From positions 780,001 through 812,000 of the forward strand of contig OY969938.1 of assembly GCA_963704755.1 (NCBI GenBank): a stretch of DNA of 32,000 nucleotides, in the 5' to 3' direction. Position numbers and translations under genes: made by a program. Positions 6,693 through 25,530 of the stretch are shown piece by piece. Position 1 is the stretch's first letter. Every line of letters starts with the position of its first letter. The notes beneath the pieces are model-generated. The model made no database searches. It worked only from the letters and a program-made list of their open reading frames with translations, and was not told the origin of the DNA. The DNA comes from an uncultured Chloroflexia bacterium (lineage in GTDB: Bacteria; Chloroflexota; Anaerolineae; Anaerolineales; Anaerolineaceae).

Positions 6693-7682
6693 TTAGCCGC
6701 CGATTTGGGTCATCCAGCGGCCGGATGGGTGGATATCTTCCGCCAGAGGGTGTTTTTCCGGTTTCAAAGCCACAGCCTGTTCGAGTAACGGCAGCATGGG
6801 CTCTCCGGCACGCATCTTTTCCAGGATGGGCACTTCCAGGTCTTTCATCAGGCAGGGGCGCAGGTTGCCGTCTGCGGTGAGGCGCATGCGATTGCAGGCC
6901 TGGCAGAAATGGACCTCACTCAGGGGTGAGATGAACCCTACCGTACCCGGGCTGTCCGGGAACCGGTACGTAGCGGCCGGCCCGCTGCCAGCCTGGCCTT
7001 CAACCGGCACCAACCCGAGGGGTTCCAGGATTTCGAGGGCCTCTTCTACCGAGAAGAAGGCTTTTTCGACATCCGCCCAATCGCTCTCCCAGGTTTGCTC
7101 ATCCTGCAGCGGCATCAACTCGATGAAGCGGACCTGCCAGGGATGGACTTTGCTCATCTCTGCCAGCTCGACTATTTCGTCGTCATTGAAACCGCGCATG
7201 AGTACCGAATTAATCTTGATGGGTGCAATCCCGGCTTGCTCGGCTGCCGCGATCCCTTTAAGCACCTGCTCCAGTTTCCCACCGCGAGTGATGTGGCGGA
7301 AACGCTCCGGATTTAAAGTGTCCAGGCTGACGTTGATCCGCTTCAAACCGGCCTGCGCCAGTGGAACCGACAGGCGCTCCAATAAAGTGCCGTTGGTGGT
7401 CAGGCTGAGATCCTTCAGGCCAGGGATATCCGCGAGCATTTTGATCAGCTCCGGTAAATCAGCCCGGACCAGCGGTTCGCCTCCGGTGATTCGCACCTCG
7501 GTAATGCCGTTTTCGACGGCCATCCGGGTGAAATCCACGATCTCTTCATAACGCATCACTGCTCCATGCGAGATCCAGGGCAACCCCTGGGGGGGCATGC
7601 AGTAGGTACAGCGTAAGTTACAGCGATCGGTAACCGATATTCTCAAGTAAGTGATCTGGCGTCCGAATGTATCAGTAAGCAC
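6693..7682 (-). CDS. moaA: GTP 3',8-cyclase MoaA (radical SAM, molybdenum cofactor biosynthesis)
   Basis: The 329-aa ORF has a GTG start, the motif YLRISVTDRCNLRCTYC (CxxxCxxC) and a C-terminal second-cluster region CQACNRMRLTADG. Confidence 0.9.
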   Translation of the reverse strand: MLTDTFGRQITYLRISVTDRCNLRCTYCMPPQGLPWISHGAVMRYEEIVDFTRMAVENGITEVRITGGEPLVRADLPELIKMLADIPGLKDLSLTTNGTLLERLSVPLAQAGLKRINVSLDTLNPERFRHITRGGKLEQVLKGIAAAEQAGIAPIKINSVLMRGFNDDEIVELAEMSKVHPWQVRFIELMPLQDEQTWESDWADVEKAFFSVEEALEILEPLGLVPVEGQAGSGPAATYRFPDSPGTVGFISPLSEVHFCQACNRMRLTADGNLRPCLMKDLEVPILEKMRAGEPMLPLLEQAVALKPEKHPLAEDIHPSGRWMTQIGG

Positions 7683-9630: not shown

Positions 9631-10012
9631 GCCCAGGTCGGCCGGACGGTTGCGGTGCCCTTCGTGGCATCGAGGAAAGTCCGCGCTCCGTAGAGCATGA
9701 TGTCGGGTAACACCCGGGGAGGGGTAACCTTCCGGATCGGGCCACAGAGACATACCGCCGGGTAAACCGGTAAGGGTGAAAAGGTGGTGTAAGAGACCAC
9801 CGGCGACCGTAGTAATACGGCGGCCAGGCAACCCCCATCAGGAGCAAGGCCAAGCAGGGACAAGGAGCTGCTCGTTCCTTTCGAGTCCCGGGTAGGCTGC
9901 ACGAGCCGGCTGGTGACGGCCGGCCTAGATAGATAACCGTCACCTCCACGACCGTCTCCTAATCAGAGATACCCGTGGGGGAACAGAACGCGGCTTACAG
10001 GCTGGCCTGGGC
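9631..10012 (+). ncRNA. rnpB: RNase P RNA, bacterial type A
   Basis: Conserved elements are present: GAGGAAAGTCCG, GGTAAGGGTGAAA, AGCAAGGCCAAG, GGGTAGGCTGC, CCTAGAT and ACAGAACGCGGCTTA. The P1 stem pairs 5' GCCCAGGTCGGCC with 3' GGCTGGCCTGGGC. Ends are approximate to within a few nt. The Arg/Pro-rich minus-strand ORFs at 9569-9949 are artefacts of this RNA gene. Confidence 0.93.
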
Positions 10013-10079
10013 AAAAAATTTCCATTATTTTATTAAAACATCCGCTATAATTGACAAAATCTCCCCAAAGGTATTTGTC

Positions 10080-10703
10080 ATGGACCATTTTGCCCTGCTT
10101 GCCAAAGGCATGATTATTGGCTTCTCTATCGCTGCGCCGGTTGGCCCGGTCGGTATGCTCTGCATCCAGCGCACGCTGGCTTACGGCCGGTTGTCCGGCC
10201 TGTTATCCGGCCTGGGGGCCGCGACCGCCGATATGTTCTACGGGTTGATTGCCGGGTTAGGGTTGACCGTTTTGAGCGGGTTCTTGATGGCCGGCCAGTT
10301 CTGGATCCGCCTGGTCGGAATCGTGTTTCTGATATACCTGGGCGTTAAAGCGCTCATCTCGCGACCTGCCTCTGAGCAAGCTTCCACAGGTAAAACCAGT
10401 CTGTGGGGAGCTTACTTTTCTACCCTCGGTTTGACCTTGACCAACCCGATTACAGTGCTTTCCTTTCTGGGCATCTTATCGGCGGCCGGTGTTGGCATAG
10501 AAAATCCCGGCGCGCTTCTGGTTATCTTCTTTGTGGTGGGGGTATTTACCGGGTCGGCCTTATGGTGGCTGCTGCTCAGCCTGGGCGTCGGCCTATTTCG
10601 GCGGCGCGTCACGCCTAACCAACTGATCTGGGTCAACCGGCTCTCCGGAGTGGTCATTATCGGCTTCAGTGTAGTCATGGCCCTCGGTCTCCTCACTGCT
10701 TGA
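10080..10703 (+). CDS. LysE/ArgO-family amino-acid exporter
   Basis: The start was trimmed to MDHFALLAKGMIIGFSIAAPVGPVG... (ATG 10080). The longer ORF would run into rnpB. The protein has about 6 TMS and the typical LysE N-terminal motif. Confidence 0.8.
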   Translation: MDHFALLAKGMIIGFSIAAPVGPVGMLCIQRTLAYGRLSGLLSGLGAATADMFYGLIAGLGLTVLSGFLMAGQFWIRLVGIVFLIYLGVKALISRPASEQASTGKTSLWGAYFSTLGLTLTNPITVLSFLGILSAAGVGIENPGALLVIFFVVGVFTGSALWWLLLSLGVGLFRRRVTPNQLIWVNRLSGVVIIGFSVVMALGLLTA

Positions 10704-10867: not shown

Positions 10868-11752
10868 TTACCCTACGTCCTCCATCCCGTCCGTTGTCGT
10901 TTCGATTAGATTCAGAAAAGTATCGACGATGCGTGGATCAAAATCCTTACCAGAGCAGCGCTTTAGCTCTTCGATTGCCTCGTTATAGGATTTGGCAGGC
11001 CGGTAGACCCGATCCACCACCATGGCGCCATAGGCATCCACTACCGCCAGAATTCGCGCACCCAATGGAATTGCTTCACCCCGTAAACCGTAAGGATAAC
11101 CCGAGCCATCGTAACGTTCATGATGGGCCAAAACCAGCTTGGAGACTTCGGATAGGCCGCGAACCATCCGCAGGATTCGCGCACCGATCTCCGGGTGCTG
11201 GCGCATAACCACCCATTCCTTATCGCTCAATGGGCCGGGTTTATGGAGAATTTGATCCGGTATGCCGATCTTCCCGATGTCATGCAAGAGAGCGGCTCTC
11301 CGGATGATTTGAATTTCTTGAAAGGAGCAATTCTGCCTGACAGCCATCAATTCGGTCAGGCGGGTGATCTTGCGGCAATGAGCCCCGGTGGACAAATCGC
11401 GGGCCTCGAGCGCCTTGGAGAGCGCCATGACGATTTCCACGACGCTATCTTCGTCAGTATAGGGCAGTCCTTCACGGTGTAAGGCCGCCGCAGCTTGCTT
11501 GGAGAACAATTGCGCAAGCTGGATTTTCTTTTCAACTTCGACGTAATTTTCAAAGCCGAGCACGAAAATGCCAACCGGCTCAGTATCCAGGCGCATCGGC
11601 ACAATCAACAGGTTGTCCTGCGGACCAGAGCGTAAAGCCAGCCGCTCGTCCACCGAAATGGACTTATCTCCATTTCTGAAGATCGCCACCTGGTCCAGCA
11701 AGATGAACTCGCTGGAGCCATTCCTGCGCTTTAGGGCTATCGTGCAGCCCAC
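10868..11752 (-). CDS. HD-GYP domain c-di-GMP phosphodiesterase-like protein (C-terminal part of a frameshifted GAF-HD-GYP gene)
   Basis: Motifs HDIGK and HHERYDGSGYP are present. The N-terminal roughly 75 aa look like the second half of a GAF domain. The ORF opens with GTG in a frame that overlaps the upstream GAF fragment. Confidence 0.8.
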   Translation of the reverse strand: MGCTIALKRRNGSSEFILLDQVAIFRNGDKSISVDERLALRSGPQDNLLIVPMRLDTEPVGIFVLGFENYVEVEKKIQLAQLFSKQAAAALHREGLPYTDEDSVVEIVMALSKALEARDLSTGAHCRKITRLTELMAVRQNCSFQEIQIIRRAALLHDIGKIGIPDQILHKPGPLSDKEWVVMRQHPEIGARILRMVRGLSEVSKLVLAHHERYDGSGYPYGLRGEAIPLGARILAVVDAYGAMVVDRVYRPAKSYNEAIEELKRCSGKDFDPRIVDTFLNLIETTTDGMEDVG

Positions 11753-12044
11753 CGATCCTTTTGACCGGGCCAGGGCTGCGCCAGTGGAAAGCCACCGGAT
11801 GAAAAAGGCCGTCTGAGCCTAAAACGATAATTTGACAATGCCTGACTTCCAATAATTCGACCGCTTTTACGGCGATTTCGTATAACAAGCTGGACGATCC
11901 TTCCCTTTCCAACCAATGGGCTATCGGATCGCCTTTCTCTACAAGACTTTCAACCAGATTTGCGGTTGAAATCTTATAAGGCTTGTTCAAATCTCCCGTA
12001 TAGCGAATATTACCCGAGATCATTGTGACGTTTCCTTGCTGCAT
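11664..12044 (-). CDS. GAF-domain N-terminal fragment (5' part of the GAF-HD-GYP gene, different frame)
   Basis: The 126-aa ORF contains LLYEIAVKAVELLEVRHCQIIVLGSDGLFHPVAF, which looks like the first helix and strands of a GAF domain. Its tail after about residue 100 overlaps the HD-GYP ORF and looks out of frame. Confidence 0.6.
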   Translation of the reverse strand: MQQGNVTMISGNIRYTGDLNKPYKISTANLVESLVEKGDPIAHWLEREGSSSLLYEIAVKAVELLEVRHCQIIVLGSDGLFHPVAFHWRSPGPVKRIGGLHDSPKAQEWLQRVHLAGPGGDLQKWR

Positions 12045-12154
12045 GATGATCCAACGACGTTATTTGTCAGGCATTACGATGACCGACAATAAGGGAATCA
12101 CCAAACTCCACTAGAAATAAGCTCTGCACGAATTAAACTCCCACCAGACCGTAG

Positions 12155-12439
12155 TCAATCAGCCGCAATGGAGGCTAACCCCCGGGCTGAAGGGACATTG
12201 TTCAATTGCGAAGCAAATTCTGCCAGAGATGTGGCCCGAATATTGGCGAGTCGATTGCGATCTTCGCTATCGAGGTCAAATGCTTCTCCACCAAAACCAG
12301 CAGCGATGGCTTTTGCGGGGTTGGAAAGCAATAATTGGCGGAATTGAACACTGATAACGGCCGCCGTAAGAATACGGCTATATTCCTGAGAGTTCTCAAA
12401 ACGAACCCGTCTTGAAGTTTCGTACATCATAGGTTTCAT
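12155..12439 (-). CDS. Small helical protein of the NHLP / LigA-like clan (RiPP-precursor-like), 94 aa
   Basis: The start was set at MKPMMYETS (ATG 12439), with an AGGAGG SD 7 nt upstream inside the last codons of the preceding gene. The segment ILTAAVISVQFRQLLLSNPAKAIAAGFGGEAFDLDSEDRNRLANIRATSLAEFASQL follows the xxAxxDxxFRxxLLSNPxxAL...LTxEE...L...FA pattern of NHLP-clan / LigA-like proteins. The assignment is by eye only. Confidence 0.6.
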   Translation of the reverse strand: MKPMMYETSRRVRFENSQEYSRILTAAVISVQFRQLLLSNPAKAIAAGFGGEAFDLDSEDRNRLANIRATSLAEFASQLNNVPSARGLASIAAD

Positions 12440-12441
12440 TA

Positions 12442-13029
12442 TTAATCCTCCTGTTTCGATCCGGTGTACACCGGTCCACCGATTGCCCAGAGCAACCAAA
12501 ACGCCCCTAGAGCGACAACAACATCCCCGAAGCTAAAGGCTACCCGATAAGCGTCCAGCGAAGGTGTACGGAATCGATCTGACAAGAAGTAAAGGACTGT
12601 CTTATCGACCGGCAGGACAATATCTTTGCCGATTCCCAACCGCTGCCCAATTGTCCAGAAGCTGGCCGGTACTTCGGGATGGAGCCATTCGACTGTGTCG
12701 GGACTGATGGGCATAAAACCGCCATTCGCCACGATTACAATCAGATTCAAGATCAGGCCCGCACCCAGGAGCCAAAACCCTGGCAGCTTACGATTGAGAA
12801 ATGCGAAGACAAATAATATCGTTTGTGAAAGTACTAAAGAGGTGCTTGCCACCCAATCAGGAACAATATCGCGAGTAATTGGAAGAGAGAAGGCTAGATA
12901 CTGAAGAATTAGAGCGATCAGCACCAGCCAGATACCACGCATCTGGTATGGCTGGTATGGCCTTTTTCCGATTTTTGCCCGAATAAGTCCAGCGGATAAG
13001 CCTGCAATGACGGCGACGACAAGTACCAT
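12442..13029 (-). CDS. DUF5317-like integral membrane protein (5 predicted TM segments)
   Basis: The 195-aa ORF has four N-terminal TM helices ending in ANGGFMP, a soluble loop of about 60 aa, and a final TM helix with FSFGDVVVALG. The resemblance to DUF5317 is from memory and needs an HMM check. Confidence 0.55.
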   Translation of the reverse strand: MVLVVAVIAGLSAGLIRAKIGKRPYQPYQMRGIWLVLIALILQYLAFSLPITRDIVPDWVASTSLVLSQTILFVFAFLNRKLPGFWLLGAGLILNLIVIVANGGFMPISPDTVEWLHPEVPASFWTIGQRLGIGKDIVLPVDKTVLYFLSDRFRTPSLDAYRVAFSFGDVVVALGAFWLLWAIGGPVYTGSKQED

Positions 13030-13049
13030 TTAGAACGAAGAATTATTCG

Positions 13050-13178
13050 TTAGAAACCAAATACAACGCGGATGCAGAAGATGATGCCACCACCAGCTTC
13101 AGGAGCACCGGCGCCGATGACAAAGAGAGCAACGGTCAAAGCGAACAAAGCGACACGGGGGTTCATTAATTTTTTCAT
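13050..13178 (-). CDS. 42-aa hydrophobic peptide (not in the supplied ORF track): MKKLMNPRVALFALTVALFVIGAGAPEAGGGIIFCIRVVFGF
   Basis: The ATG at 13178 is preceded by a GGAG SD 8 nt upstream and an in-frame TGA 15 nt upstream. The TAA stop is at 13050-13052. The next gene starts 20 nt downstream on the same strand. The sequence resembles a signal peptide or TM helix followed by a Gly-rich hinge and a short hydrophobic tail. Confidence 0.5.
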   Translation of the reverse strand: MKKLMNPRVALFALTVALFVIGAGAPEAGGGIIFCIRVVFGF

Positions 13179-13233
13179 TTCAAATTCTCCATTTCACGAT
13201 TTGTTGCGGATAGATTTAGTTTAGCAATAGGTA

Positions 13234-13254
13234 GGCTTCAAAGGTGGCTTCAAA
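13234..13254 (-). promoter_or_regulatory. Tandem direct repeat GGCTTCAAA x2 (12-nt period) upstream of the peptide operon. Candidate activator site.
   Basis: GGCTTCAAA occurs at 13234-13242 and 13246-13254 (TTTGAAGCC on the coding strand), about 56-76 nt upstream of the peptide ATG. Each repeat contains the -35-like TTGAAG. Confidence 0.3.
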
Positions 13255-13484
13255 AACCCGGTTTTGGAGCCATTAACCTTAAAAATTCGCACTTATTGCG
13301 TATATTTTCCTAACCAAATTATTATTAAAAAGGGGATAAAAAGAATTACCGCTTCCCCCCTGGTTGTTTTTCGTCTTTCAGAAATACGCGGGCTAATGAT
13401 TTATCGCCCACCTGGTAAAAAAAAACGAATTTTTACAAACTAACCTGAACTTCTATGGACCATTTGATGCACGCCGGAATGGCC

Positions 13485-15503
13485 TTACTGTCTTGTCAAG
13501 ATCTTATACAGGCTCTGAGTTTGCGCGGATGGCTCGGTACCCAGTTCGTTGACCAATTCCTGGACGCATTTTTCGTACTGCTTCACAACTTCCGCCAGGT
13601 TGCCGATCGAGGCGTTGGCCCGCATGGCTAACCGGTAAAAATTCTCGTTAGCCGGATCGTAAGTCAAACCCTGCTGGACCGCGCTCAATGTATCCAGGAA
13701 TTTTCCATTTTCCATGTGGATTTCACTGATCCGGACCATGGCATCCACATACATTTGGTGCAACCGCTGCCTTTCGGCTAATACCCAATCCTCGTTGAGT
13801 TCCGGCAAGAAGTCGCCATGGTAGAGCGCGGTCGCGTTCAGGTAATGGGTAAGCTGGGTTTCCTGGTTTGGGGCCCTGACCGCATTTTGGAATTCGCGTT
13901 TAAAGGATTCGAAATCCGCCTCGTAATCCATGTTGTGGTTGAAATAATAGGTTTCATCGTCGAAAACGATAACGTCTTTCCCGGCGGCATGACGCAGGCG
14001 GTAAATCGAATTCTTGTACCTCAGTTTCAACTCTGCCGGGGATGAATCCGGCCAGAAGAACATGCCGACTTCTTCCTTGGTTAATCCCTCCGGGTGTAAA
14101 AGTAAAAGCAGCATCAGGTCCCGCGCACTTTGTGCCTTCCACTCCGCCCCGCTGATCACATGATCCCCCAGGGATACCTGTATTTTTCCCAAACTAACAA
14201 TCGAAAGCTCGGGAGGCGTAAGCGGTACGACCTGGGATTGGCGGCGCAGCAGTTTCCGCACTTGCGGTAAATTTTTATTGACTTTGTCGATCATGCCTCT
14301 CAAGGGCTGGATCTTTTCGACGGTCTCTGTAGGGATTTTATCTATTTCGATCAAGTCCACCAGCACCTCGCCTGCCGAGGCAAGCACGTTTTGCAACTCC
14401 CCGCTGGTTACCAACGGGAGCACTATGTTTATCTGATCGTCGGCCTCTTTAATATGATCCAATTGGAAATACGTCGCCGCGACCATAAAGCGGCTGCGCA
14501 CGGCCTCCACATGATGGCCCTCTCCGGTGAAATACTCCATCGCCGGTACTAATTCGGCTAATGCCTGTTCGTAATCTTTGCGGTTGTAGGCCACCCGCCC
14601 GGCCAGCATACCGGTCAAATATTTTTCGTAATCCGAGCCGGCTTCTTGGGCTATTCCGCGGGCAATATCCAGCAATTCCTCGGCCCGGCGGATGTGTCCC
14701 CGCAGCAGCCCCATCTCGCATTCCACTAACATCAGGTAAAACTGTAAGAACTGGTCGTTGATCTGGTGAATGGTCTCGCGTGCCTTCTGGTAGGCTTCAG
14801 TCGCTTCCTTGAAACTGTGGATATCCTTGAACAGGTCTCCCAGGCTGGTCAGCGCGTAAGCTTCCAGCCGGCTGTAACCGCCCATACGGGCGTATTGGAT
14901 GGCCCGCTCCAGTTCGTTCAGCGCAGTTTCATACTCTCCGGATAGGGCATGCAGGACACCTAAATTATTTAATAAATTCGCCTGCCAGACGACGTTGCCG
15001 GTGGATTGGTAGTAAGACAATATTTCGCGATATATCTCTTCTGCCGTGGTGAATTTGCCCAGGTAACGCGAGACCATGGCGATCTCCATGGATACCTTGG
15101 CTACCGAATCTTCATCATTGATTTTTCGGAAGGCATCTTTAGCGCGATTGAGCCAGGCCAGGGCTTCGCTCAAATTACCTAAGAAATTCAAACCCATCCC
15201 CTTGGTGTGATATGCCCCCGCCAGAATCATTTCCATTTCACTGTTTTTACTTGCAATTTCAATCGCGCGATCCGCATCGACGAGTGAAAGGCGATAATCG
15301 CCAAGCATACGGTAAGCGCTTGATCTTCGAACATACGTCAAGGCTTCCAGTAGGCTGTTGGGGAAAATTTTAATAATCCAAGAGCTCGGCCAAAAATCTC
15401 CACTGCTGCTTTCGTGTCCCCCAACATACCTTTTGCCGCTCCCTGCAATGAGACCAGCGCAGGCGATTTTTCGAGAGTGTTTTCGGGGAGCTGTTCCAGC
15501 CAA
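13485..15503 (-). CDS. TPR + OmpR/SARP-type winged-helix + BTAD region (3' part of a frameshifted STAND regulator)
   Basis: Multiple TPR-like repeats are followed by a C-terminal region (LSIVSLGKIQVSLGDHVISGAEWKAQSARDLMLLLLLHPEGLTKEEV...YRLR, then HYLNATALYHGDFLPE...YRLAMRA...AEVVKQYEKCVQELVNELGTEPSAQT) typical of the SARP DNA-binding and BTAD domains. The first roughly 45 codons of the listed ORF are probably out of frame. Confidence 0.75.
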   Translation of the reverse strand: MAGTAPRKHSRKIACAGLIAGSGKRYVGGHESSSGDFWPSSWIIKIFPNSLLEALTYVRRSSAYRMLGDYRLSLVDADRAIEIASKNSEMEMILAGAYHTKGMGLNFLGNLSEALAWLNRAKDAFRKINDEDSVAKVSMEIAMVSRYLGKFTTAEEIYREILSYYQSTGNVVWQANLLNNLGVLHALSGEYETALNELERAIQYARMGGYSRLEAYALTSLGDLFKDIHSFKEATEAYQKARETIHQINDQFLQFYLMLVECEMGLLRGHIRRAEELLDIARGIAQEAGSDYEKYLTGMLAGRVAYNRKDYEQALAELVPAMEYFTGEGHHVEAVRSRFMVAATYFQLDHIKEADDQINIVLPLVTSGELQNVLASAGEVLVDLIEIDKIPTETVEKIQPLRGMIDKVNKNLPQVRKLLRRQSQVVPLTPPELSIVSLGKIQVSLGDHVISGAEWKAQSARDLMLLLLLHPEGLTKEEVGMFFWPDSSPAELKLRYKNSIYRLRHAAGKDVIVFDDETYYFNHNMDYEADFESFKREFQNAVRAPNQETQLTHYLNATALYHGDFLPELNEDWVLAERQRLHQMYVDAMVRISEIHMENGKFLDTLSAVQQGLTYDPANENFYRLAMRANASIGNLAEVVKQYEKCVQELVNELGTEPSAQTQSLYKILTRQ

Positions 15504-16723
15504 TTTTGCAGAGTCAACAAACGGCCGTGGGCGACCATGATTGGCCCGGCAGTTTCGATCATGCGGGCGATGTAATCATTGTTCCCGATTTGCTCGTAAA
15601 CCTGGTAAGCGCGTTCCCATTCCCCAATCCCCTGATAATATTCAGCCAGGGCCATCTGGATTTTGCGGGCCTCTTCCAAATGCTCGCGCAGCATGCGGTT
15701 CTGCAGAAAATCGCGAAAGAGGTGGTGATAGCGCAGCCAGATCTTCTCTTCGACCACCGGGAGGACGAACAGGTTATTTCGCTGGACCTCCTCCATCAAA
15801 CTGTCCCAGTTTGCTTGAATTCCCAGGGTTTTGCCCAAAACCTGTTCGCACAATTGCGCATCGAATTCTTCTAGCAGCGAGGTCCGGTACAGGAACAGCT
15901 TGAGTTCGTCGCTCTGGTGCTCCAAAACCTGCTGGGCCAGGTAATCGTAAAGGCCTACCCCGGTAACCGGGTAGGATTGGAATCGGGTTACAACCCGCCC
16001 ATTGACCACCTGGGTAGAAAGGATCAACCCGGTAATCCAGCCCTCGGTCAGTTCGGCCAGTGAATTGGCTTCGCGGTCACTGATGGTCAGTTTGAAGTTT
16101 TGCAGGTACAGGTCTTGAATTTCTTCCAGGCGGAAGGCCAGCTCTTCGAAACCCAAACCGCCTACTTCCGAGCGTGCGACCAACAGGGGCATATCCGGTA
16201 AAGGCAGCAGCCGGCGCGAAGAGATAATCAGGTGGCAGTTCTCATCCACCATCAACAAGAACCGGTTGATGAAATAATTGATGTCCCGGTTCTCTTCCAC
16301 CAGGTGATAATCGTCGAGCACGATCAGAAAGTGCTCGTCGATGGTCTCGTATGCATCATTGACCACCAGCGAAACCAGCGCGTCCAGGTTTAGCCTCTCT
16401 TGAGGCATCGACTGTAAGGCAGACATACTGGTCTTCCCGAAATCGCCAAACACATTTGATACCGCCGCGATGAAATGGGCGATAAACCGCTGTGGGTCAC
16501 GATCCAGGTTGTCTAAAGCCAGCCAGCAGACCGGCATGGAATTCTGATGGACGTAATCAACCAATAATGAAGTCTTGCCATAACCAGCCGGTGCCGCCAC
16601 AATGATCAGCCGGTTTTCGACTAAATCATCCAGGTGGTTCAACAGACGGGGACGCGTCAATAAATCCGCCCTGCGCCGTGGAATAATAATTTTCGTTCTT
16701 GTAACGGGTGTGGTGGTATCCAT
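15338..16723 (-). CDS. MalT-like STAND (AAA_16) ATPase N-terminal part of the same regulator
   Basis: Walker A is present (AAPAGYGKTSLL), as is Walker B (FLIVLDDYH), with a MalT-like arm (LAELTEGWITGLIL). The ORF terminates inside an A4/T4/C4 homopolymer patch, and the next ORF continues the repeat in the -1 frame. Confidence 0.8.
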   Translation of the reverse strand: MDTTTPVTRTKIIIPRRRADLLTRPRLLNHLDDLVENRLIIVAAPAGYGKTSLLVDYVHQNSMPVCWLALDNLDRDPQRFIAHFIAAVSNVFGDFGKTSMSALQSMPQERLNLDALVSLVVNDAYETIDEHFLIVLDDYHLVEENRDINYFINRFLLMVDENCHLIISSRRLLPLPDMPLLVARSEVGGLGFEELAFRLEEIQDLYLQNFKLTISDREANSLAELTEGWITGLILSTQVVNGRVVTRFQSYPVTGVGLYDYLAQQVLEHQSDELKLFLYRTSLLEEFDAQLCEQVLGKTLGIQANWDSLMEEVQRNNLFVLPVVEEKIWLRYHHLFRDFLQNRMLREHLEEARKIQMALAEYYQGIGEWERAYQVYEQIGNNDYIARMIETAGPIMVAHGRLLTLQNWLEQLPENTLEKSPALVSLQGAAKGMLGDTKAAVEIFGRALGLLKFSPTAYWKP

Positions 16724-17414: not shown

Positions 17415-18410
17415 ATGGAATTCAAGCTACTGGGAAATACAGGCGTAAGAGTATCCAGTTTATGTTTTGGCACCATGTCCTTCGGCGGCGACGCCGACGA
17501 AACCACATCGGCAGCCCTGTTCAATCGCTGCCTGGATGCCGGTATCAATTTCTTCGATTGTGCCAACATTTACAATGACGGAAAAGCCGAAGAAATCCTC
17601 GGCCGGCTGATCCAGGGACGGCGCGACCAGCTCGTTTTGACCAGCAAAGTCTATTTCTCAACGGCGGCCGGGGTCAACAACCGCGGTGCATCCCGCCGGC
17701 ACATTCTGCTTTCCGTCGAAGACAGTCTGCGCCGTTTGCAAACCGACCGGCTCGACGTTTACTTCATCCACCACTTCGACGAACAAACTCCGCTGGAAGA
17801 AACCCTGCGCGCGCTGGACGATCTGGTCCGCCAGGGGAAAATCCTCTACCCGGCCGCTTCCAACTTTGCCGCCTGGCAAATCATGAAGGGCCTTGGAATT
17901 TCAGAGCGCTGCGGTTTTGCCCGGTTCGAGGTGCTTCAGCCTATGTATAACCTGACCAAGCGCCAGGCCGAGGTGGAAATTCTGCCGCTAGCCCAATCCG
18001 AAAACCTGGCCGTCATTCCTTACAGCCCACTGGGCGGCGGTCTCTTGACCGGCAAATATTACGCCAGGAATCACCCGCAAATCGGCCGGCTGAATGACAA
18101 CAAGATGTACTCTGAGCGCTACGGTCAGGAAGAAACTTTTGCCACCGCCGATCGCTTTTATGACTTCGCCCGGTCAAATGGCTACGAACCGGCTGCGTTA
18201 GCGGTTGCCTGGGCCGGCAGCCACCCGGCCGTCACTGCCCCGATCCTGGGTGCCAGGAACCTGGAGCAGTTGAACGGCTCCTTGAAATCCCTGGAGATCG
18301 ATATGACCCCCGACCTGCGAGCCAAAATCTCCGAGCTTTCGATCGCACCAGCTGTTGCGACGGATCGTACCGAAGAAAGGGACGAGATTGATTATTTATC
18401 CAGAAAGTAA
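17415..18410 (+). CDS. Aldo/keto reductase family oxidoreductase
   Basis: The 331-aa ORF has the typical AKR N-terminus (LGNTGVRVSSLCFGTMSFGG...FFDCANIYNDGKAEEILG) and a GGGAG SD upstream. Confidence 0.88.
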   Translation: MEFKLLGNTGVRVSSLCFGTMSFGGDADETTSAALFNRCLDAGINFFDCANIYNDGKAEEILGRLIQGRRDQLVLTSKVYFSTAAGVNNRGASRRHILLSVEDSLRRLQTDRLDVYFIHHFDEQTPLEETLRALDDLVRQGKILYPAASNFAAWQIMKGLGISERCGFARFEVLQPMYNLTKRQAEVEILPLAQSENLAVIPYSPLGGGLLTGKYYARNHPQIGRLNDNKMYSERYGQEETFATADRFYDFARSNGYEPAALAVAWAGSHPAVTAPILGARNLEQLNGSLKSLEIDMTPDLRAKISELSIAPAVATDRTEERDEIDYLSRK

Positions 18411-18463
18411 TCTGGTCGCGCAAGCAGATCGGATTCTTCAGGAACAAGTCTGCCATCATGGGG

Positions 18464-18491
18464 GAAGCGGCCAGGCCGCTTCTTCTTTTTT
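18464..18491 (+). terminator. Intrinsic terminator after the aldo/keto reductase gene
   Basis: Stem GAAGCGG / CCGCTTC with loop CCAGG is followed by TTCTTTTTT. Confidence 0.65.
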
Positions 18492-18614
18492 CACCGGTTG
18501 ATTAACCAAAGGGAACTATTCAGTCAAACAGGAAAAGATCCCAAATTTCAAATACCTGCCTGAGTAGAGTCAACGGAATAAGATTTCTTCATTGGAAACA
18601 AAGAAGTAGAGCCA

Positions 18615-20471
18615 ATGGTAACCGTAAAACGCATCTCTGAAATCCGCCCGCGCCTGGACCAGGAATTCAAACCGCAGCCCTTCACACCCCGTACCGAGGC
18701 CATCGCTGAAGCCTACCGTTGGGGACAGGCCCTGCACGCCGGTCAATTCCGTTTGAGCGGAGAACCTTACTTCGAAACGCATTGTGCCTGGGTGGCAGGC
18801 TTTCTGGACGAATTGGTCCACCACGAAGCCTGGACCATCGCCGCCCTGCTGCACGACAGTGTAGAAGACCAGGGCGAAAGCCTGGAGATGATCAAGGAAC
18901 ATTTTCCGGGACCGTTAGGGGAAGAAGTCGCTTACATCGTCGATGGCGTTACCAAAATCAGCAACCCGCGCGACGGGCGCTCGCGTGAGATCGAAACCTT
19001 GCGAAAGATTGCCCAATTCCGTGACCCAGGTGTTTTTCTGGTCAAGCTGGCCGATAAAAGCCACAACCTGTTAACCCTGGAGCATATGCCCGAGCATAAG
19101 CGCCGCCTGAAGGCGACCGAGGCTATCCGTGCGTACGGCAAACTGGCCGGCATTTTGAATTGCTACAAATGGCGTCGCTGGATCGAAGATATGTCTTTCC
19201 CGTTCGCCGACCCCGAAACGTACCGCTTCGTCCGTGAAAAGATCGATCATGACCCGCGTCTGAACCTGTATTTCATCAATGACCTGATGAACCAGGTCGG
19301 CAGAATAATGGAAGAAGCCGGCGTGGAGGGTTCGGTTGAGCTGGTCGTCAACGGGTACTGGCAATCCTGGCAAAAATTACGCCGCATGGCCCAGGCTCGC
19401 CAGACTTCGATGAATTCGTTCAAAGACGTGAACGACGTGATCAGCATTCGTATGGTGCTGGACAGCGACGATGAAACCGGCTGCTATTTGCTCCTGCCGC
19501 GGATCAACCGCATGCTGGCACCCTACCTGGACCAGAACCGTTTCGACGACTACATTGCCTGCCCGCAGAACGGTTACCGCGCCTTGCAGATCACCGCCTG
19601 GATTCCCAACCGCGGCGCAATTGAAGTCGCCATCGTCACCCGGGATATGGAAGGCGAGAATCACTGGGGAGTCGTCTATGCCCTGCAACATGGCAAAGAC
19701 ATCAGCCACTACAACCCGGTCGAGATATTGACCCCCTCCGGCGGGGCCAGGTTCGTCCAAGAAGGCTCTTCGGTATTGGACGCCGTCGCTTCGATCCAAC
19801 AAGAGCTTCTGCTCGACAAAATTAGCGCAGTCAAAATCAACGGCAAACCCACCCCACTTTCGGATAAAGTCCACCCCGGCGATATCGTTGAGGTCATCAC
19901 CGAGGGAAAACGCATTTTGCCGGCCGAGGATTGGCTAAAATACGCCAACAACTCGACCACCCGTGTTCTGCGCTCGGCAATCAATACCCAGGCATTGCGA
20001 AAAACGGCCGAGGAAGGCCGTTTGATGATTCGCCCGGTCCTGGGGAATCATGGGATGCTGGCCCTGGAAGACATTCAGGAGCTGGACCACGATCAATACG
20101 ACGTCTTGCTCGAAAAGCTGGGAGCCTCCAGCCTGGAAGACCTGTACGCCTCGCTCGGTTCGGGCGCCATCCGCCTGATCGATTTCAGCCAGACGCTGGA
20201 CGAGATCGGCCTGACCGCCACCAACCTGATGTGGACGACCATCTCCTGTATTGGCACCAAATCCTCCAATAAACCGGGCGCACTGGCCAGCCTGGCCAAC
20301 CTGGTCTCCCAGGCCGGCGGAAATATCCTGCGCTCGGTCAACAACACCCTACCGGACGGGACTTTCTATTTGCGGCTGGTCATCAAGAACCTGGACCGGG
20401 ACCAACGCGATAATTTGCGCATTGCCTTTATGCAAAGTGGATTGGAATTAGAAAATCTGGAGGTTGTTTAG
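18615..20471 (+). CDS. RelA/SpoT homologue (HD hydrolase + degenerate synthetase + TGS + ACT)
   Basis: HD-domain motifs are intact (GEPYFETH, LLHDSVED, VDGVTKIS, VKLADKSHNL). The synthetase-like region has substitutions in canonical motifs (see findings). A TGS-like segment (GDIVEVIT) and a C-terminal ACT-like segment are present. Confidence 0.8.
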   Translation: MVTVKRISEIRPRLDQEFKPQPFTPRTEAIAEAYRWGQALHAGQFRLSGEPYFETHCAWVAGFLDELVHHEAWTIAALLHDSVEDQGESLEMIKEHFPGPLGEEVAYIVDGVTKISNPRDGRSREIETLRKIAQFRDPGVFLVKLADKSHNLLTLEHMPEHKRRLKATEAIRAYGKLAGILNCYKWRRWIEDMSFPFADPETYRFVREKIDHDPRLNLYFINDLMNQVGRIMEEAGVEGSVELVVNGYWQSWQKLRRMAQARQTSMNSFKDVNDVISIRMVLDSDDETGCYLLLPRINRMLAPYLDQNRFDDYIACPQNGYRALQITAWIPNRGAIEVAIVTRDMEGENHWGVVYALQHGKDISHYNPVEILTPSGGARFVQEGSSVLDAVASIQQELLLDKISAVKINGKPTPLSDKVHPGDIVEVITEGKRILPAEDWLKYANNSTTRVLRSAINTQALRKTAEEGRLMIRPVLGNHGMLALEDIQELDHDQYDVLLEKLGASSLEDLYASLGSGAIRLIDFSQTLDEIGLTATNLMWTTISCIGTKSSNKPGALASLANLVSQAGGNILRSVNNTLPDGTFYLRLVIKNLDRDQRDNLRIAFMQSGLELENLEVV

Positions 20472-20479
20472 GAGCATTC

Positions 20480-20971
20480 ATGAAAATCGGCATCATTTCA
20501 GACACACACAATAACACTGCCAACCTAAAAGCCGCCGTCGAGCGGTTCAAGAAAGATGGCATCCAGATTGTCATCCATTGCGGAGACCTGACCAACCCGG
20601 AAGAGTTGGATTGGCTGGACGGCTTCCAGGTGATTTTCACCTATGGCAACGGCGATTATGACCCAGATGAAATTCACCGGCGTCTGATCGCCGCCAACCC
20701 CGCATCAACTGCCGCCTACAAATACGAAGGGGAATTCGACAGCCTCTTCATCGGGGTTACGCATGGGCATTTGGAAAACTTTCTAGACGAAATGGCCAGC
20801 AGCAACAAATTCGATTTCATCTTTCGCGGCCATTCTCATCACCGCAAGGAAGAGCTCGTTGGCCGCACCCATATGATCAACCCAGGCGCCCTGGGTGGCC
20901 TTTTCCACGAAGAGCGCTCGTACTGCATCCTGGACACAGGCACCCGCCAGGTAGAGTTTGTTATGCTCTAG
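20480..20971 (+). CDS. YfcE/MJ0936-family metallophosphoesterase
   Basis: The 163-aa ORF carries the motif series ISDTH, HCGD, GNGD, THGH and RGHSH. It starts 8 nt after the RSH stop. Confidence 0.85.
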   Translation: MKIGIISDTHNNTANLKAAVERFKKDGIQIVIHCGDLTNPEELDWLDGFQVIFTYGNGDYDPDEIHRRLIAANPASTAAYKYEGEFDSLFIGVTHGHLENFLDEMASSNKFDFIFRGHSHHRKEELVGRTHMINPGALGGLFHEERSYCILDTGTRQVEFVML

Positions 20972-21044: not shown

Positions 21045-21137
21045 ATGCCTTCAAAATCCACACCCCTTGTGATTGCAATCGCTGGCGGCTCTGGTTCCGG
21101 AAAGACCACAGTCGCCAGTGAAATTTTAAAGAGGTAG
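21045..21137 (+). CDS. udk: Uridine kinase, N-terminal P-loop fragment (frameshifted)
   Basis: The translation is MPSKSTPLVIAIAGGSGSGKTTVASEILKR*. The P-loop is separated from the rest of Udk by a frame change at the TTTT/AAA run at 21124-21130. Confidence 0.7.
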   Translation: MPSKSTPLVIAIAGGSGSGKTTVASEILKR

Positions 21138-21184
21138 GCGGCCACCGGATTGCCTACCTGCCGCACGACGCCTATTATCGCGAC

Positions 21185-21685
21185 TTGAAAGACTTGCCGC
21201 TCAACCAGCGCCTACAGATCAATTTCGATCACCCGGACTCGCTGGAAACCAGTTTATTAATAAAACATATCACTGCCTTGAAGAATTGGGAAACAATCGA
21301 TCTGCCGGTTTACGACTTCACGACCCACACACGTACCGACCAAACTGTCCAGATCAAACCACAAAGGGTGATTATCGTCGAAGGGATCCTGATCTTTGTC
21401 GAACAAGCGCTCCGTGATCTATTCGACGTGAAAATCTTCGTCGATACCGACTCGGATTTACGCTTTATCCGCCGACTGGAGCGCGATATCCGCGAACGCG
21501 GCCGGACTACCGACACGGTCATCCATCAGTACCTGACCACCGTCCGTCCCATGCACATGGATTTTGTAGAGCCCTCTAAACGTTATGCCGATGTCATCAT
21601 CCCGGAAGGTGGGTTCAATACGGTTGCCCTGGAAATGGTGATTTCCAGAATCGAAACACTCCTGGAGAAGACCAACCCGGCTTAG
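21185..21685 (+). CDS. udk: Uridine kinase, main body (frame continues upstream to about 21128)
   Basis: Udk motifs are present (NFDHPDSLE, YDF, IVEGIL, FVDTDSDLRFIRRLERDIRERGR). In this frame the upstream codons read KEVGGHRIAYLPHDAYYRDL, which joins the P-loop fragment naturally. Confidence 0.85.
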   Translation: MKDLPLNQRLQINFDHPDSLETSLLIKHITALKNWETIDLPVYDFTTHTRTDQTVQIKPQRVIIVEGILIFVEQALRDLFDVKIFVDTDSDLRFIRRLERDIRERGRTTDTVIHQYLTTVRPMHMDFVEPSKRYADVIIPEGGFNTVALEMVISRIETLLEKTNPA

Positions 21686-23617: not shown

Positions 23618-24406
23618 TCAAGCCAGTTTTACGGTCACCGGGTCGCCAACTGCGGCCCGGAGGCTTTCTGCGGCGCTGCCGTTGACCACACATAGGCTGA
23701 GCCGTCCGGAGCTGTCCAACATGGCGATCAAATCACCCACCTGGGCTTCCCCAAAGGTGTTCTGCACACCCTGGACGATTTTTCCCCGGCAGGCGACTGT
23801 GGCCACCTGCCGGCCGGCCAACAGATCTTCGCTCAGATTGGTGATCAGGTTCCCGAAAACGTCCACCAAAATAACCTGAGCCTCCCAGCCGTTTTCCACA
23901 TCCTGTGGTTGGGGCATATCCAGGAGAATCACTTCACCGGCCGGTGAGCCGATTTTGTTTAGCGGCGTTCCTTGGGCCAGGTGTGCCCCTACCGGGGCAA
24001 AGATATCCCGCCCATGGAACGAGCGGCTGATGTCGGGAAGCCAGAATTGTGGCTGGTCCAGTTGGACGATATCTACCAGCTCTCCGCGAGTTTCAGCGTC
24101 TTGTAATACGGCGGTAAGCAGGCCATTATCCGGGGCGACAAAATAATGTTCGCCGATCCGGGCCGCGATCGCTCGCCGGGCAGTACCGACGCCCGGGTCA
24201 ATCACAGCCACGTGAACACTGCCGGCCGGGAAATAGCGGTAGGATTTCTCCAATAAAATAGCTCCCTGGAGCACATTCTGCGGGGCAACTTCGTGGCTGA
24301 TGTCAGCGATCTGCGCCTGTGGGGCAATCCCCCAGATCACACCTTTCATCACCCCCACAAAGCCATCCTTATTGCCAAAATCGGTTAGAAGTGAAATAAC
24401 GGTCAT
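23618..24406 (-). CDS. SAM hydrolase / SAM hydroxide adenosyltransferase family protein (DUF62)
   Basis: The 262-aa ORF has the N-terminus ISLLTDFGNKDGFVGVMKGVIWGIAP...IADISHEV...AVIDPGVGTARR, which is diagnostic of the family. Confidence 0.85.
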   Translation of the reverse strand: MTVISLLTDFGNKDGFVGVMKGVIWGIAPQAQIADISHEVAPQNVLQGAILLEKSYRYFPAGSVHVAVIDPGVGTARRAIAARIGEHYFVAPDNGLLTAVLQDAETRGELVDIVQLDQPQFWLPDISRSFHGRDIFAPVGAHLAQGTPLNKIGSPAGEVILLDMPQPQDVENGWEAQVILVDVFGNLITNLSEDLLAGRQVATVACRGKIVQGVQNTFGEAQVGDLIAMLDSSGRLSLCVVNGSAAESLRAAVGDPVTVKLA

Positions 24407-24450
24407 GGCTTTATTGTAATGTCAATCGCCGATCAACCAACCAAAAGTCG

Positions 24451-24495
24451 GGGGGATTGTTTTTCGTGTGCGATGCATAGGAAAAACAATCCCCC
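24451..24495. repeat. Intergenic hairpin repeat, copy B (45 nt)
   Basis: GGGGGATTGTTTTTC-GTGTGCGATGCATAG-GAAAAACAATCCCCC has a 15-bp outer stem and the same apex as copy A. It lies between the SET-domain stop and the DUF62 start. Confidence 0.7.
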
Positions 24496-24505
24496 AGATT
24501 CTCAA

Positions 24506-25051
24506 TCAGGCCAGTTTTCGTCCGTTGTTTCGCGGAGCAAGCTGGCGCATTTTTTCGATCCGCCGTTGTAAGTACGGCGAGAAATAACCGTCGTAACGTT
24601 CCTGCAATTCGGGTAACTGCCAGTCGTGTCCGGTAATCGTTTTGCGGCAGTTTGTCGAGCCGCAGTGGCATTCGAATTCGTCGTAATCCGAAGAGTCGCT
24701 CATCGCATAATCGAAGCAAACCTCTTCACCGGTGGGGATATCCCGCATGGCAACCATCGAGATCGGCGTGTCCAGCCCGCTGTTCGGGTCACAGGAATGG
24801 TTGAAATAATCCGCCAATTCGCCATGTGTAACCGGCACCAGATACAGGTCTTCCTGAATCTGGATACCATGGGTCTGTCGCTCTACCGGTAATTCACCCA
24901 ATTGGTCAGTCGTGACCACCTGGCCGCCCCACATGGCCAGCAGTTCGCCCTGCGGAATTGGTTCGATGGCATACAGGCCAAAGCCGCCTTTTTCGCTACA
25001 CGGCCGCAGTTCCAATTTTGGTGAACAATACGAAAACGTCGTAATTTCCAT
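24506..25051 (-). CDS. SET-domain protein (putative protein lysine methyltransferase)
   Basis: The 181-aa ORF has NHSCDPN, EEVCFDY and a post-SET Cys cluster CHCGSTNCR. Confidence 0.85.
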   Translation of the reverse strand: MEITTFSYCSPKLELRPCSEKGGFGLYAIEPIPQGELLAMWGGQVVTTDQLGELPVERQTHGIQIQEDLYLVPVTHGELADYFNHSCDPNSGLDTPISMVAMRDIPTGEEVCFDYAMSDSSDYDEFECHCGSTNCRKTITGHDWQLPELQERYDGYFSPYLQRRIEKMRQLAPRNNGRKLA

Positions 25052-25264: not shown

Positions 25265-25457
25265 GGTTTTCCCCACAACTTGACCTGGGGAAGTGCGTTA
25301 CAGCGACTTAAAGTGCTGACGAGACAGACACATGCCTTGCCAGGGCAATTTCGGTACCAGAAGGTAACCCTTCCTACCGGGCAATGGAGTGCATATTATA
25401 ACAAATACTGCCTTGAATGAATAGAAATTGTGTAGATAGATGTTAGAATTAATCTTG

Positions 25458-25530
25458 AGCCATCGATGGGATTCGGACCCATGACCTGACGTTTACGAAA
25501 CGCCTGCTCTGCCAGCTGAGCTACGATGGC
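25458..25530 (-). tRNA. tRNA-Thr (anticodon CGU)
   Basis: The minus-strand sequence is GCCATCGTAGCTCAGCTGGCAGAGCAGGCGTTTCGTAAACGTCAGGTCATGGGTCCGAATCCCATCGATGGCT. The cloverleaf folds with a 7-bp acceptor stem, GCTC/GAGC D stem, GGCGT/ACGTC anticodon stem, loop TTCGTAA and ATGGG/CCCAT T stem. CCA is not encoded. Confidence 0.9.

Follow-up and report, generated by a model that had tools for sequence, protein, structure and literature searches.

RRNPP systems of the Firmicutes, such as Rgg/SHP, PlcR/PapR and NprR/NprX, place the gene of a cytoplasmic DNA-binding regulator with TPR repeats upstream of, and adjoining, a very small gene. A similar layout occurs on the minus strand of a 32,000-nucleotide (nt) stretch of DNA, hereafter called the window, from an uncultured Chloroflexia bacterium of the Anaerolineaceae (assembly GCA_963704755.1, contig OY969938.1, positions 780,001 to 812,000 of the forward strand). 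There, a large regulator gene is followed by a direct-repeat promoter, a gene for a 42-residue peptide (the mini-peptide), a gene for a membrane protein of the domain-of-unknown-function family DUF5317, a gene for a 94-residue NHLP-like protein with a predicted LigA-like core and a gene for a cyclic di-GMP (c-di-GMP) phosphodiesterase-type protein with an HD-GYP domain. We report here that this gene arrangement recurs in the Chloroflexota far beyond chance, and we weigh what the cassette may do. As in the RRNPP systems, the small product has a basic N-terminal end, a hydrophobic segment and last residues that vary by lineage, and the regulator is predicted to activate the peptide promoter. In contrast to RRNPP regulators, which have ~290–430 residues and an N-terminal XRE-type helix-turn-helix (or are phosphatases), the regulator of the cassette has ~1080 residues with a STAND NTPase and a C-terminal SARP-type domain; moreover, the cassette has a near-invariant G-A-P junction, DUF5317 and LigA-like core genes and no linked Opp-type importer. 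It is not a member of the RRNPP family, and by analogy the two would share only the logic of a receptor encoded beside a pro-peptide, any processing and re-import being hypothetical here.

The regulator also resembles AfsR, ActII-ORF4, DnrI and MalT in that a BTAD domain lies beside a putative OmpR-like winged helix and in that a P-loop NTPase is combined with TPR repeats, as in AfsR and MalT. Likewise, the promoter carries direct repeats at about one helical turn that end ~10 nt before a -10-like hexamer, and the regulator is encoded beside its presumed targets, as with SARPs. However, the domain order is NTPase-TPR-winged helix-BTAD in the cassette and winged helix-BTAD-NTPase-TPR in AfsR, the cassette occurs in Chloroflexota, and its repeat period is 12 nt, whereas that of SARP sites is 11 nt.

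With regard to the small proteins, the 94-residue protein shares with the NHLP, Nif11, ComX, Frankia_peptide and TglI group a putative three-helix LigA-like core, matched by hidden Markov models (HMMs; E ~1e-7), and flexible tails, and it resembles the recognition elements of ribosomally synthesised and post-translationally modified peptides (RiPPs) in occurring either free or fused to its partner. It differs from the NHLP group in that it scores below the cut-offs, lacks a cleavage motif, a maturase, an exporter and paralogue expansion, and has DUF5317 as a constant partner. The Agr system offers a further comparison, as the gene for a pro-peptide of ~45 residues adjoins that for a multi-pass membrane protein of ~190 residues, and the gene for a signalling protein follows. 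DUF5317 is nevertheless unrelated to AgrB by sequence or fold and lacks the AgrB His/Cys pair, and the peptide of the cassette consists of an N-terminal helix and a C-terminal tail, whereas AgrD has an amphipathic leader, a core and an acidic tail.

No description of the gene set was found in Pfam (beyond the DUF entry), NCBIfam, PADLOC, Rfam, the Protein Data Bank (PDB) or the searchable literature. This agrees with an earlier sequence-only reading of the window, which had held that the set matched no described system. The parts belong to known superfamilies (SARP/STAND, LigA-like and HD-GYP). An anti-phage defence system was considered and rejected, as PADLOC returned nothing for the peptide, DUF5317 or the 94-residue protein and only generic HD and TPR matches for the other two.

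Conservation of the cassette

Homologous loci were collected with a degenerate pattern that was run against a single genome from each GTDB species and yielded 299 relatives of DUF5317. The best 80 of these were analysed; all are from Chloroflexota, nearly all are annotated to orders of the Anaerolineae, and their DUF5317 proteins are 45–67% identical to that of the window. Open reading frames (ORFs) were called in each locus and searched with HMMs built for the analysis, and the counts refer to evaluable loci. The sequence-only reading had proposed a module of mini-peptide, DUF5317, NHLP-like and HD-GYP genes and had staked it on the linkage of DUF5317 homologues to the other three. These homologues do keep their neighbours: a mini-peptide gene precedes DUF5317 by 0–25 nt, on the same strand, in 75 of 75 loci (jackhmmer), an NHLP-like gene lies immediately downstream on the same strand in 78 of 79, and an HD-GYP gene downstream in 62 of 77. 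In addition, a full-length orthologue of the regulator is found upstream on the same strand in 60 of 63 loci. The module is real, and it is larger than first described, with the upstream regulator and the direct-repeat promoter as parts of it. The core consists of four genes and their promoter, the HD-GYP gene being a frequent but exchangeable fifth.

Neighbours may also be kept through inherited synteny alone, with no functional unit, and the closest relatives do share a neighbourhood of aldo-keto reductase, RelA/SpoT and metallophosphoesterase genes. However, in more distant loci (~30–46% DUF5317 identity) the regulator is still followed by peptide, DUF5317 and NHLP-like genes even though all flanking genes differ, the stop and start codons of the cassette genes overlap or sit 2–20 nt apart, gene fusions exist, and the loci share a promoter element. 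The linkage counts and the fusions contradict mere synteny, which we find scarcely credible.

The mini-peptide was also found in the distant loci L088, L089 and L091. In L092, the most distant locus sampled, another gene lies downstream of DUF5317 and there is no LigA-like gene. Three carriers of the cassette are in culture: Bellilinea caldifistulae GOMI-1, Ornatilinea apprima P3M-1 and Anaerolinea thermolimosa IMO-1.

Some individual loci deviate from the common layout. In L041 (6772–8676) a gene for a 634-residue serine recombinase (Resolvase and Recombinase domains) directly follows DUF5317; this is the sole species locus without an NHLP-like gene, and a mobile element may have disrupted the cassette there. 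In L048 (6380–7040) two ORFs in different frames share the NHLP-like gene (HMM positions 10–42 and 43–82), reflecting a frameshift or an assembly error. The Anaerolinea loci L065 and L084 have no regulator within 6 kb and keep the repeat promoter; in both, a second HD-GYP-containing protein of ~963 residues is encoded ~6 kb upstream on the opposite strand.

Structure of the locus

In the window the mini-peptide gene (13050..13178) encodes MKKLMNPRVALFALTVALFVIGAGAPEAGGGIIFCIRVVFGF and has a GGAGA sequence 7 nt ahead of its ATG. The DUF5317 gene (12442..13029) follows after 20 nt and the gene of the 94-residue protein (12155..12439) after another 2 nt, with a GGAGG embedded in the final DUF5317 codons. 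The earlier reading had drawn these three genes and their gaps in the same way, and our ORF scan returned the same 42-residue peptide frame (13178->13050). It was also right about the AT-richness of the 306-nt spacer at 13179–13484 (38.2% GC, against 53.6% in the window) and about a large STAND/SARP regulator upstream (13485..16723), for which we found a STAND/TPR/BTAD architecture. Its account of the GAF/HD-GYP gene had to be revised in two respects. What had been taken as one gene from 12044 to 10868 is a span of 1177 nt holding two ORFs in different frames (12044->11664 and 11752->10868), and the spacer after the 94-residue gene, given as 110 nt, becomes 131 nt with the likelier start at 12023 (MISGN after AAGGAA), which was placed by comparison with the orthologue in locus L086. 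The gene is accordingly listed here as 10868..12023.

Both the HD-GYP gene and the regulator gene are frameshifted in this assembly. Compared with the 83%-identical L086 orthologue, an intact protein of 384 residues, the HD-GYP gene has one extra base in a GTTC at ~11707–11705 (+1 frameshift); orthologues in relatives are intact and have 384–388 residues. The regulator is read as ORFs 16723->15338 and 15503->13485, one T being missing at ~15376 as judged by tblastn with an intact orthologue of 1088 residues, and in relatives it is a single gene for ~1080–1090 residues. A uridine kinase gene (21045–21685, plus strand) is frameshifted too, into a P-loop ORF of 30 residues (21045–21137) and an ORF of 166 residues (21185–21685) that spans Pfam PRK positions 60–195. 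Since the 32 kb thus hold three single-base frameshifts, of which at least two are changes in T-runs and one is in a housekeeping gene, indel errors are indicated, the assembly probably containing many of them, and the two frameshifts in the cassette are probably assembly errors. Decay of the cassette in this genome was considered; assembly error is simpler, as the uridine kinase gene carries the third frameshift.

A known RNA or riboswitch was sought in the 306-nt leader and between the genes, and Rfam gave nothing at E<=1. The spacer between the 94-residue and HD-GYP genes does not fold unusually (z = 0.72) and its sequence is not conserved, and no convincing terminators were seen between the cassette genes.

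Regulator and direct-repeat promoter

The regulator of the window matches BTAD with 81.1 bits (cut-off 22.1) as well as the Pfam families TPR_12 and TPR_MalT, and its N-terminal ORF matches NCBIfam MalT at E 5e-67. It does not belong to the MalT equivalog, as the match to PRK04841, at 226.7 bits (cut-off 537), is confined to the NTPase and arm, and as the C-terminus is BTAD, not LuxR; it likewise stays far under the cut-offs of the NCBIfam MalT and AfsR models. In an intact orthologue a MalT-like P-loop NTPase is followed by TPR repeats (~350–750), a region with an OmpR/SARP winged-helix pattern and BTAD (938–1075, 65 bits). Pfam Trans_reg_C was not reported at E<=0.01, and the aligned region displays ...FWPD...LK.RFKN.IYRLR.A..., a pattern that we take to be typical of the OmpR-type winged helix, at the C-terminus and not at the N-terminus.

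About 70 nt upstream of the first peptide ATG, an exact repeat of at least six nucleotides at a 12-nt period is present in 58 of 74 loci, compared with 9% of control windows drawn from the same loci. In the window two 12-nt units, TTTGAAGCCACC and TTTGAAGCCTAC (13231..13254, minus strand; the TTTGAAGCC repeats), form the predicted operator of the BTAD regulator. The hexamer GAAGCC stands at 13251->13246 and 13239->13234, and this is the sole exact GAAGCC-N6-GAAGCC in the 32 kb. Elsewhere the hexamer reads GTAGCC, GATGCC, GGAGCC, GCATCC, AGAGCC, GAGGAT, GTATCC or GTCTAC; it is identical in every copy within a locus and changes in concert between lineages. There are two to six copies per locus, with six in one. 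A -10-like hexamer lies ~10–13 nt after the repeats. In the window it is TAAACT (13218..13223, minus strand), a sequence pattern 10 nt past the second repeat hexamer and ~40 nt ahead of the peptide ATG, and related loci have TAAACT, GATAAT or CATAAT at the same offset. Concerted tandem half-sites at about one helical turn that abut a -10 element are the signature of SARP/OmpR-type activator sites, and the present repeats, which have a 12-nt period and end ~10 nt ahead of the -10-like hexamer, conform to it as far as sequence can tell. The recognition helix of the regulator differs between the repeat classes. We infer that the regulator would activate the repeat promoter.

Tandem amplification of the unit TTTGCATCCxxx to three to six 12-nt copies was seen in locus L056 (~230–290 nt upstream of the DUF5317 start at 6001) and in L036, L026, L049 and L060, whereas most genomes have two units.

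The mini-peptide

The mini-peptide of the window has a basic N-terminal end, one membrane helix, a G-A-P junction and a 16-residue tail. Across the loci a basic N-terminal segment of 8–25 residues precedes a conserved helix (...R.xLFVLTxxLFVLxAGAP), and 76 of the 84 unique peptides have GAGAP, AAGAP or GSGAP as their junction. The tails have a median length of 8 residues, contain 33% Gly and commonly end in G, W, F, R or H. They are alike within a clade and unlike between clades, examples being EAGGGIINSIITFPGW in Bellilinea, xCTGSVGG in another group and PEAGGGIINSIITFPGW; compared with its 85% relative, the window peptide has 85% identity in the helix and 62% in the tail. The distribution of charges points to an orientation with the N-terminus inside and the tail outside, which would bring the G-A-P junction to the outer side of the membrane, next to the conserved loop of DUF5317. 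A sub-threshold match of the peptide to a light-harvesting antenna family (E 0.0065, below the cut-off) was rejected, as it reflects merely a shared single membrane helix.

The peptide gene is present in one to four tandem copies per locus, which are often identical (four each in L083 and L069, two in L004, and also in L040). In Ornatilinea apprima P3M-1 (L083, 5377–5997) and in L069 (5324–5919), the four near-identical genes (MSKARVIMFVVMVAMFVLAAGAPFCVGGVGG and MKSTLQGRHIRILLALSALTMFVLSAGAPGASGW, respectively) each have their own ribosome-binding region. The regulator lies farther upstream in L083, and none is found within 6 kb in L069.

A small hydrophobic peptide gene, at times in several copies, followed by a gene for a multi-pass membrane protein and accompanied by a dedicated activator, is also what a bacteriocin locus would look like, and this layout is common among class II bacteriocins. 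The peptide would then be a toxin, DUF5317 its immunity protein and the regulator the control of production. Yet the part after the junction can be as short as 5 residues, and it is the presumed signal or anchor that is conserved, not the presumed mature part. The cassette is, moreover, a stable, single-copy, vertical and class-wide trait, whereas bacteriocin loci are typically patchy, and there were no matches to anti-phage or conflict systems. We therefore regard a bacteriocin as very improbable.

The DUF5317 membrane protein

The product of 13029->12442, a protein of 195 residues previously read as DUF5317-like with five transmembrane (TM) helices, matches PF17248 with 110.8 bits against a cut-off of 25 (E 7.9e-32, model positions 3–151 of 151), and a Pfam scan of it reported no family besides DUF5317. 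In the AlphaFold 2 (AF2) model (predicted local distance difference test, pLDDT, 87.8) there are five membrane helices and a conserved, beta-rich loop at residues 102–166. In a set of proteins at 24–63% identity R17, N79, G91, N95, N102, G104, M106, P107, L149, D151, G168 and D169 are invariant; they fall in the motifs NGGxMP, LSD and FSxGD, and the two invariant Asp and three invariant Asn lie in or next to the TM4–TM5 loop. This suggests that the Asp and Asn at the outer end of helices 4 and 5 make up a catalytic or binding site. The C-terminus is predicted to be cytoplasmic, with the N-terminus and the long loop between helices 4 and 5 outside, because in fusions (see below) the C-terminus carries a small domain of low hydropathy without a signal sequence; a basic loop after helix 1 is as expected for this arrangement.

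Foldseek searches of the PDB returned nothing at E<=0.001 (best E 0.7), a profile search of the PDB gave nothing at E<=10, and literature searches found no paper on DUF5317, a Pfam family of ~3,400 sequence clusters. The LSDR and FSxGD motifs raised the idea of a GxGD or LspA-like aspartyl peptidase, but no peptidase was among the Foldseek matches. DUF5317 does recall LspA in some ways: each is a small membrane protein that has a pair of essential or invariant Asp close to the outer face, the pattern F-[NS]-x-[AG]-D opens the last helix, and the end of the peptide helix, L-(A/G)-(A/G)-G-A, recalls a lipobox. However, the two proteins differ in the number of helices and in where the loop lies, no invariant Cys follows the junction, and hhalign with Pseudomonas aeruginosa LspA aligned only 19 columns around the second Asp at a probability of 0.9%. 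The motif resemblance to the second catalytic Asp of signal peptidase II thus has no statistical support, and the peptidase idea was rejected as evidence and retained as a lead. In general, Pfam, PDB, Foldseek and hhalign comparisons gave no sequence or fold similarity of DUF5317 to AgrB, LspA or GxGD intramembrane peptidases.

The 94-residue protein and its fusions

Both small proteins had been assigned to families by the sequence-only reading, and whereas DUF5317 is well above its cut-off, the assignment of the 94-residue protein stands only in part. Its matches fall within the proposed family and clan at E ~1e-7, but they stay below the curated cut-offs: Frankia_peptide PF14407 gives E 8.4e-7 and 29.6 bits (cut-off 48), and the Os1348 family NHLP clan protein model NF038399 gives E 1.6e-7 and 31.3 bits (cut-off 40). 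All 25 aligned members are recognised by the two models at E<=0.01 (the lowest values being 1.2e-7 and 5.3e-9, respectively), and by these scores the 94-residue proteins constitute a related but separate subfamily. The protein is predicted to be cytoplasmic. Its helical core (residues 19–80) is conserved and is modelled by AF2 with pLDDT ~90 at residues 20–80, while the first ~18 and last ~14 residues are variable and predicted to be disordered. Foldseek matched the model weakly to nitrile hydratase and thiocyanate hydrolase chains (E ~5). Matches of the 94-residue profile to RecA in the PDB were discarded as an artefact of a short LLLSNP word in concatenated RecA constructs.

Two fusions join the two proteins. 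P0339 (357 residues) contains DUF5317 at residues 27–194 and a PF14407-like part at 262–314, and P0351 (296 residues, six member sequences in its cluster) contains DUF5317 at 26–177 and a PF14407-like part at 225–281, together with a weak NHase_alpha match. Both loci have a BTAD regulator and a G-A-P peptide upstream. The fusions are independent, and they are strong evidence that DUF5317 and the LigA-like protein cooperate physically. In ECOD, the LigA-like group comprises Frankia_peptide, Nif11, ComX, DurB, the nitrile hydratase alpha chain, LigA and the peptide-recognition N-domain of TglI, that is, RiPP leaders (NHLP, Nif11, ComX) as well as a peptide-recognition subunit (TglI), so the fold serves both as leader and as recognition or regulatory subunit (PMC12353581).

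The 94-residue protein might instead be the true precursor, with a ComX/NHLP-like leader and a variable core of ~12–15 residues which DUF5317 would modify or export, leaving the mini-peptide an accessory. PF14407 and NF038399, the families nearest to it, carry RiPP-precursor annotations, the ComX, Nif11 and NHLP leaders are in the same fold group, and its variable C-terminal tail, modelled as disordered (pLDDT <50), often ends in small-small-Asp/Glu in Anaerolineaceae. That ending is, however, not class-wide. No Gly-Gly-type or other conserved cleavage motif follows the core in 84 loci, where the tails have 0–40 residues and no core residue in common. Furthermore, the domain is cytoplasmic and fused to the membrane protein in two lineages, and its gene is single-copy everywhere, the amplified gene being that of the mini-peptide. 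Pfam scans of most large ORFs of the window and the precomputed annotation of loci L001, L004, L086, L088 and L089 showed neither a maturase (radical S-adenosylmethionine (SAM)/SPASM, YcaO, LanM or ATP-grasp) nor a peptidase-domain ABC exporter beside the cassette. We consider a precursor role of the 94-residue protein improbable.

The HD-GYP gene

The last gene of the cassette encodes a GAF and HD-GYP protein of the phosphodiesterase type, with matches to HD_5 (125 bits, cut-off 27.2) and HD (77.5 bits) and the motif HHERYDGSGYP (AHHERYDGSGYPYGL). It resembles RpfG-type proteins in having HD_5 with HHE...DGxGYP and an N-terminal sensor domain, here a weak GAF, but it differs in lacking a receiver domain and in being an exchangeable last cassette gene. 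The N-terminal domains and lengths vary by locus (369–764 residues), and in several of the loci without an HD-GYP gene the next gene encodes a PAS-GAF-GAF protein, a PAS-HisKA-HATPase-REC hybrid kinase, a kinase ATPase domain or a receiver. HD-GYP looks like the least fixed part of the cassette, an exchangeable output rather than core.

Proposed function

The cassette probably produces or handles a small peptide signal. Our working interpretation in detail, which we put forward tentatively and as somewhat short of probable, is that of a self-regulated, autoinducer-like cassette for peptide processing, conserved across the class Anaerolineae and with a c-di-GMP output. The regulator would bind the direct repeats and turn the operon on. 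The peptide would insert with its N-terminus inside and its tail outside, bringing the G-A-P junction at the outer face near the Asp/Asn loop of DUF5317. There DUF5317 would bind the peptide and most likely cleave or otherwise process and release it, while the LigA-like protein would act as adaptor or recognition element, docked in the cytoplasm to the C-terminal end of DUF5317. Feedback on the TPR sensor of the regulator would come from the freed tail or from the state of the complex, and the co-expressed HD-GYP protein would lower c-di-GMP as the physiological output, a role that a kinase might take in some loci.

The sequence-only reading had suggested either a sensing or a peptide-processing module, and the latter seems to fit the anatomy slightly better, given the multi-copy peptide genes, the recognition-type LigA-like domain that is free or fused to the membrane protein, and the cluster-situated SARP-type activator. 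Processing is favoured because the peptide genes are amplified, because the adaptor is found either free or fused, as is typical of peptide-recognition elements, and because a TPR regulator with an adjacent pro-peptide resembles the RRNPP systems. A more far-reaching version is that DUF5317 founds a new class of membrane-embedded peptide-processing enzymes, acting at the outer face on G-A-P mini pre-peptides with a LigA-like helper and a STAND-type TPR receptor/activator, in what would be the first peptide autoinducer circuit of the Chloroflexota, wired to c-di-GMP; this we hold to be unlikely.

Several observations weigh against peptide processing. Cleavage and release are a proposal. Signal peptidase I is blocked by a Pro that directly follows an A-x-A-like site, so the peptide might just remain a membrane anchor. 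By sequence and fold comparison, DUF5317 resembles no known protease, transferase or transporter. The cytoplasmic N-terminal segment of the peptide is short and poorly conserved in the clade of the window, which weakens a leader-recognition role for the LigA-like protein. The cassette includes no peptide importer or surface receptor, and the HD-GYP protein, the NHLP-like protein and the regulator have no convincing membrane segment by hydropathy. Finally, the match between the recognition helix of the regulator and the repeat class is confounded by shared ancestry.

These points leave room for a membrane sensor complex without any secreted signal, which we view as possible though doubtful. The uncleaved peptide, DUF5317 and the LigA-like adaptor would form a stable complex in the membrane that senses the state of the membrane or envelope, or binds an external ligand, and passes this on in the cytoplasm to the regulator and/or to the HD-GYP protein or kinase. 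The membrane helix is the most conserved part of the peptide, as would be expected of a subunit packing on a membrane protein, and the invariant Pro would shield the peptide from signal peptidase I. Tethering of the LigA-like domain to DUF5317 in the fusions, and the fact that the final operon gene nearly always encodes a signalling protein, are also consistent with a sensor. On the other hand, up to four identical tandem peptide copies suit a precursor that is consumed rather than a 1:1 subunit, the variable N-terminal domains and lengths of the HD-GYP protein and the absence of its gene from some loci make a fixed protein relay unlikely, and the constraint on the tail within clades indicates that it is more than a spacer.

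Neighbouring genes

The earlier reading had stated that the usual partners of a RiPP precursor are missing from the window. There is in fact one radical SAM gene, at 6693–7682 on the minus strand and 3 kb past the cassette end, but it encodes MoaA (radical SAM and Mob_synth_C), a housekeeping protein unrelated to the cassette and not a RiPP maturase, so the statement holds with regard to RiPP partners proper. Between them, a class A bacterial RNase P RNA gene (9634–10013, plus strand, 267 bits) is overlapped at its 3' end by the longest LysE ORF (9975–10703), solely through an extended GTG start; judging from the L086 orthologue, which has 207 residues, translation really begins near 10080.

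Upstream of the regulator, genes for an aldo-keto reductase, a RelA/SpoT protein of 618 residues and a metallophosphoesterase (17415–20971, plus strand) also flank the cassette in the Bellilinea-clade loci L001 and L004 and not in the distant loci; that an alarmone (ppGpp) enzyme adjoins a c-di-GMP cassette possibly, but not certainly, has a meaning. Farther away, genes for a SAM hydroxide adenosyltransferase (SAM_HAT_N/C) and a SET-domain protein adjoin a tRNA-Thr(CGT) gene (23618–25051 and 25457–25530, both minus strand), and a 228-residue protein encoded at 30328–31014 (minus strand) combines FHA with an OmpR-type Trans_reg_C, an uncommon architecture of phosphothreonine reader and transcription factor.

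Implications

The Anaerolineae are abundant filamentous bacteria of anaerobic digesters, activated sludge and sediments, and their signalling is almost uncharted. A class-wide cassette with its own regulator and a predicted operator, whose core proteins lack relatives of solved structure and were the subject of no paper in our searches, provides a well-defined entry point to it. If the peptide is processed, DUF5317 would be a new family of membrane enzymes acting on a new kind of pre-peptide signal, and a domain of unknown function with ~3,400 sequence clusters would gain a function. If it is not processed, the cassette would represent a new membrane sensor that contains a mini-protein and is linked to c-di-GMP. 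The three cultured strains that carry the cassette make either reading directly testable.

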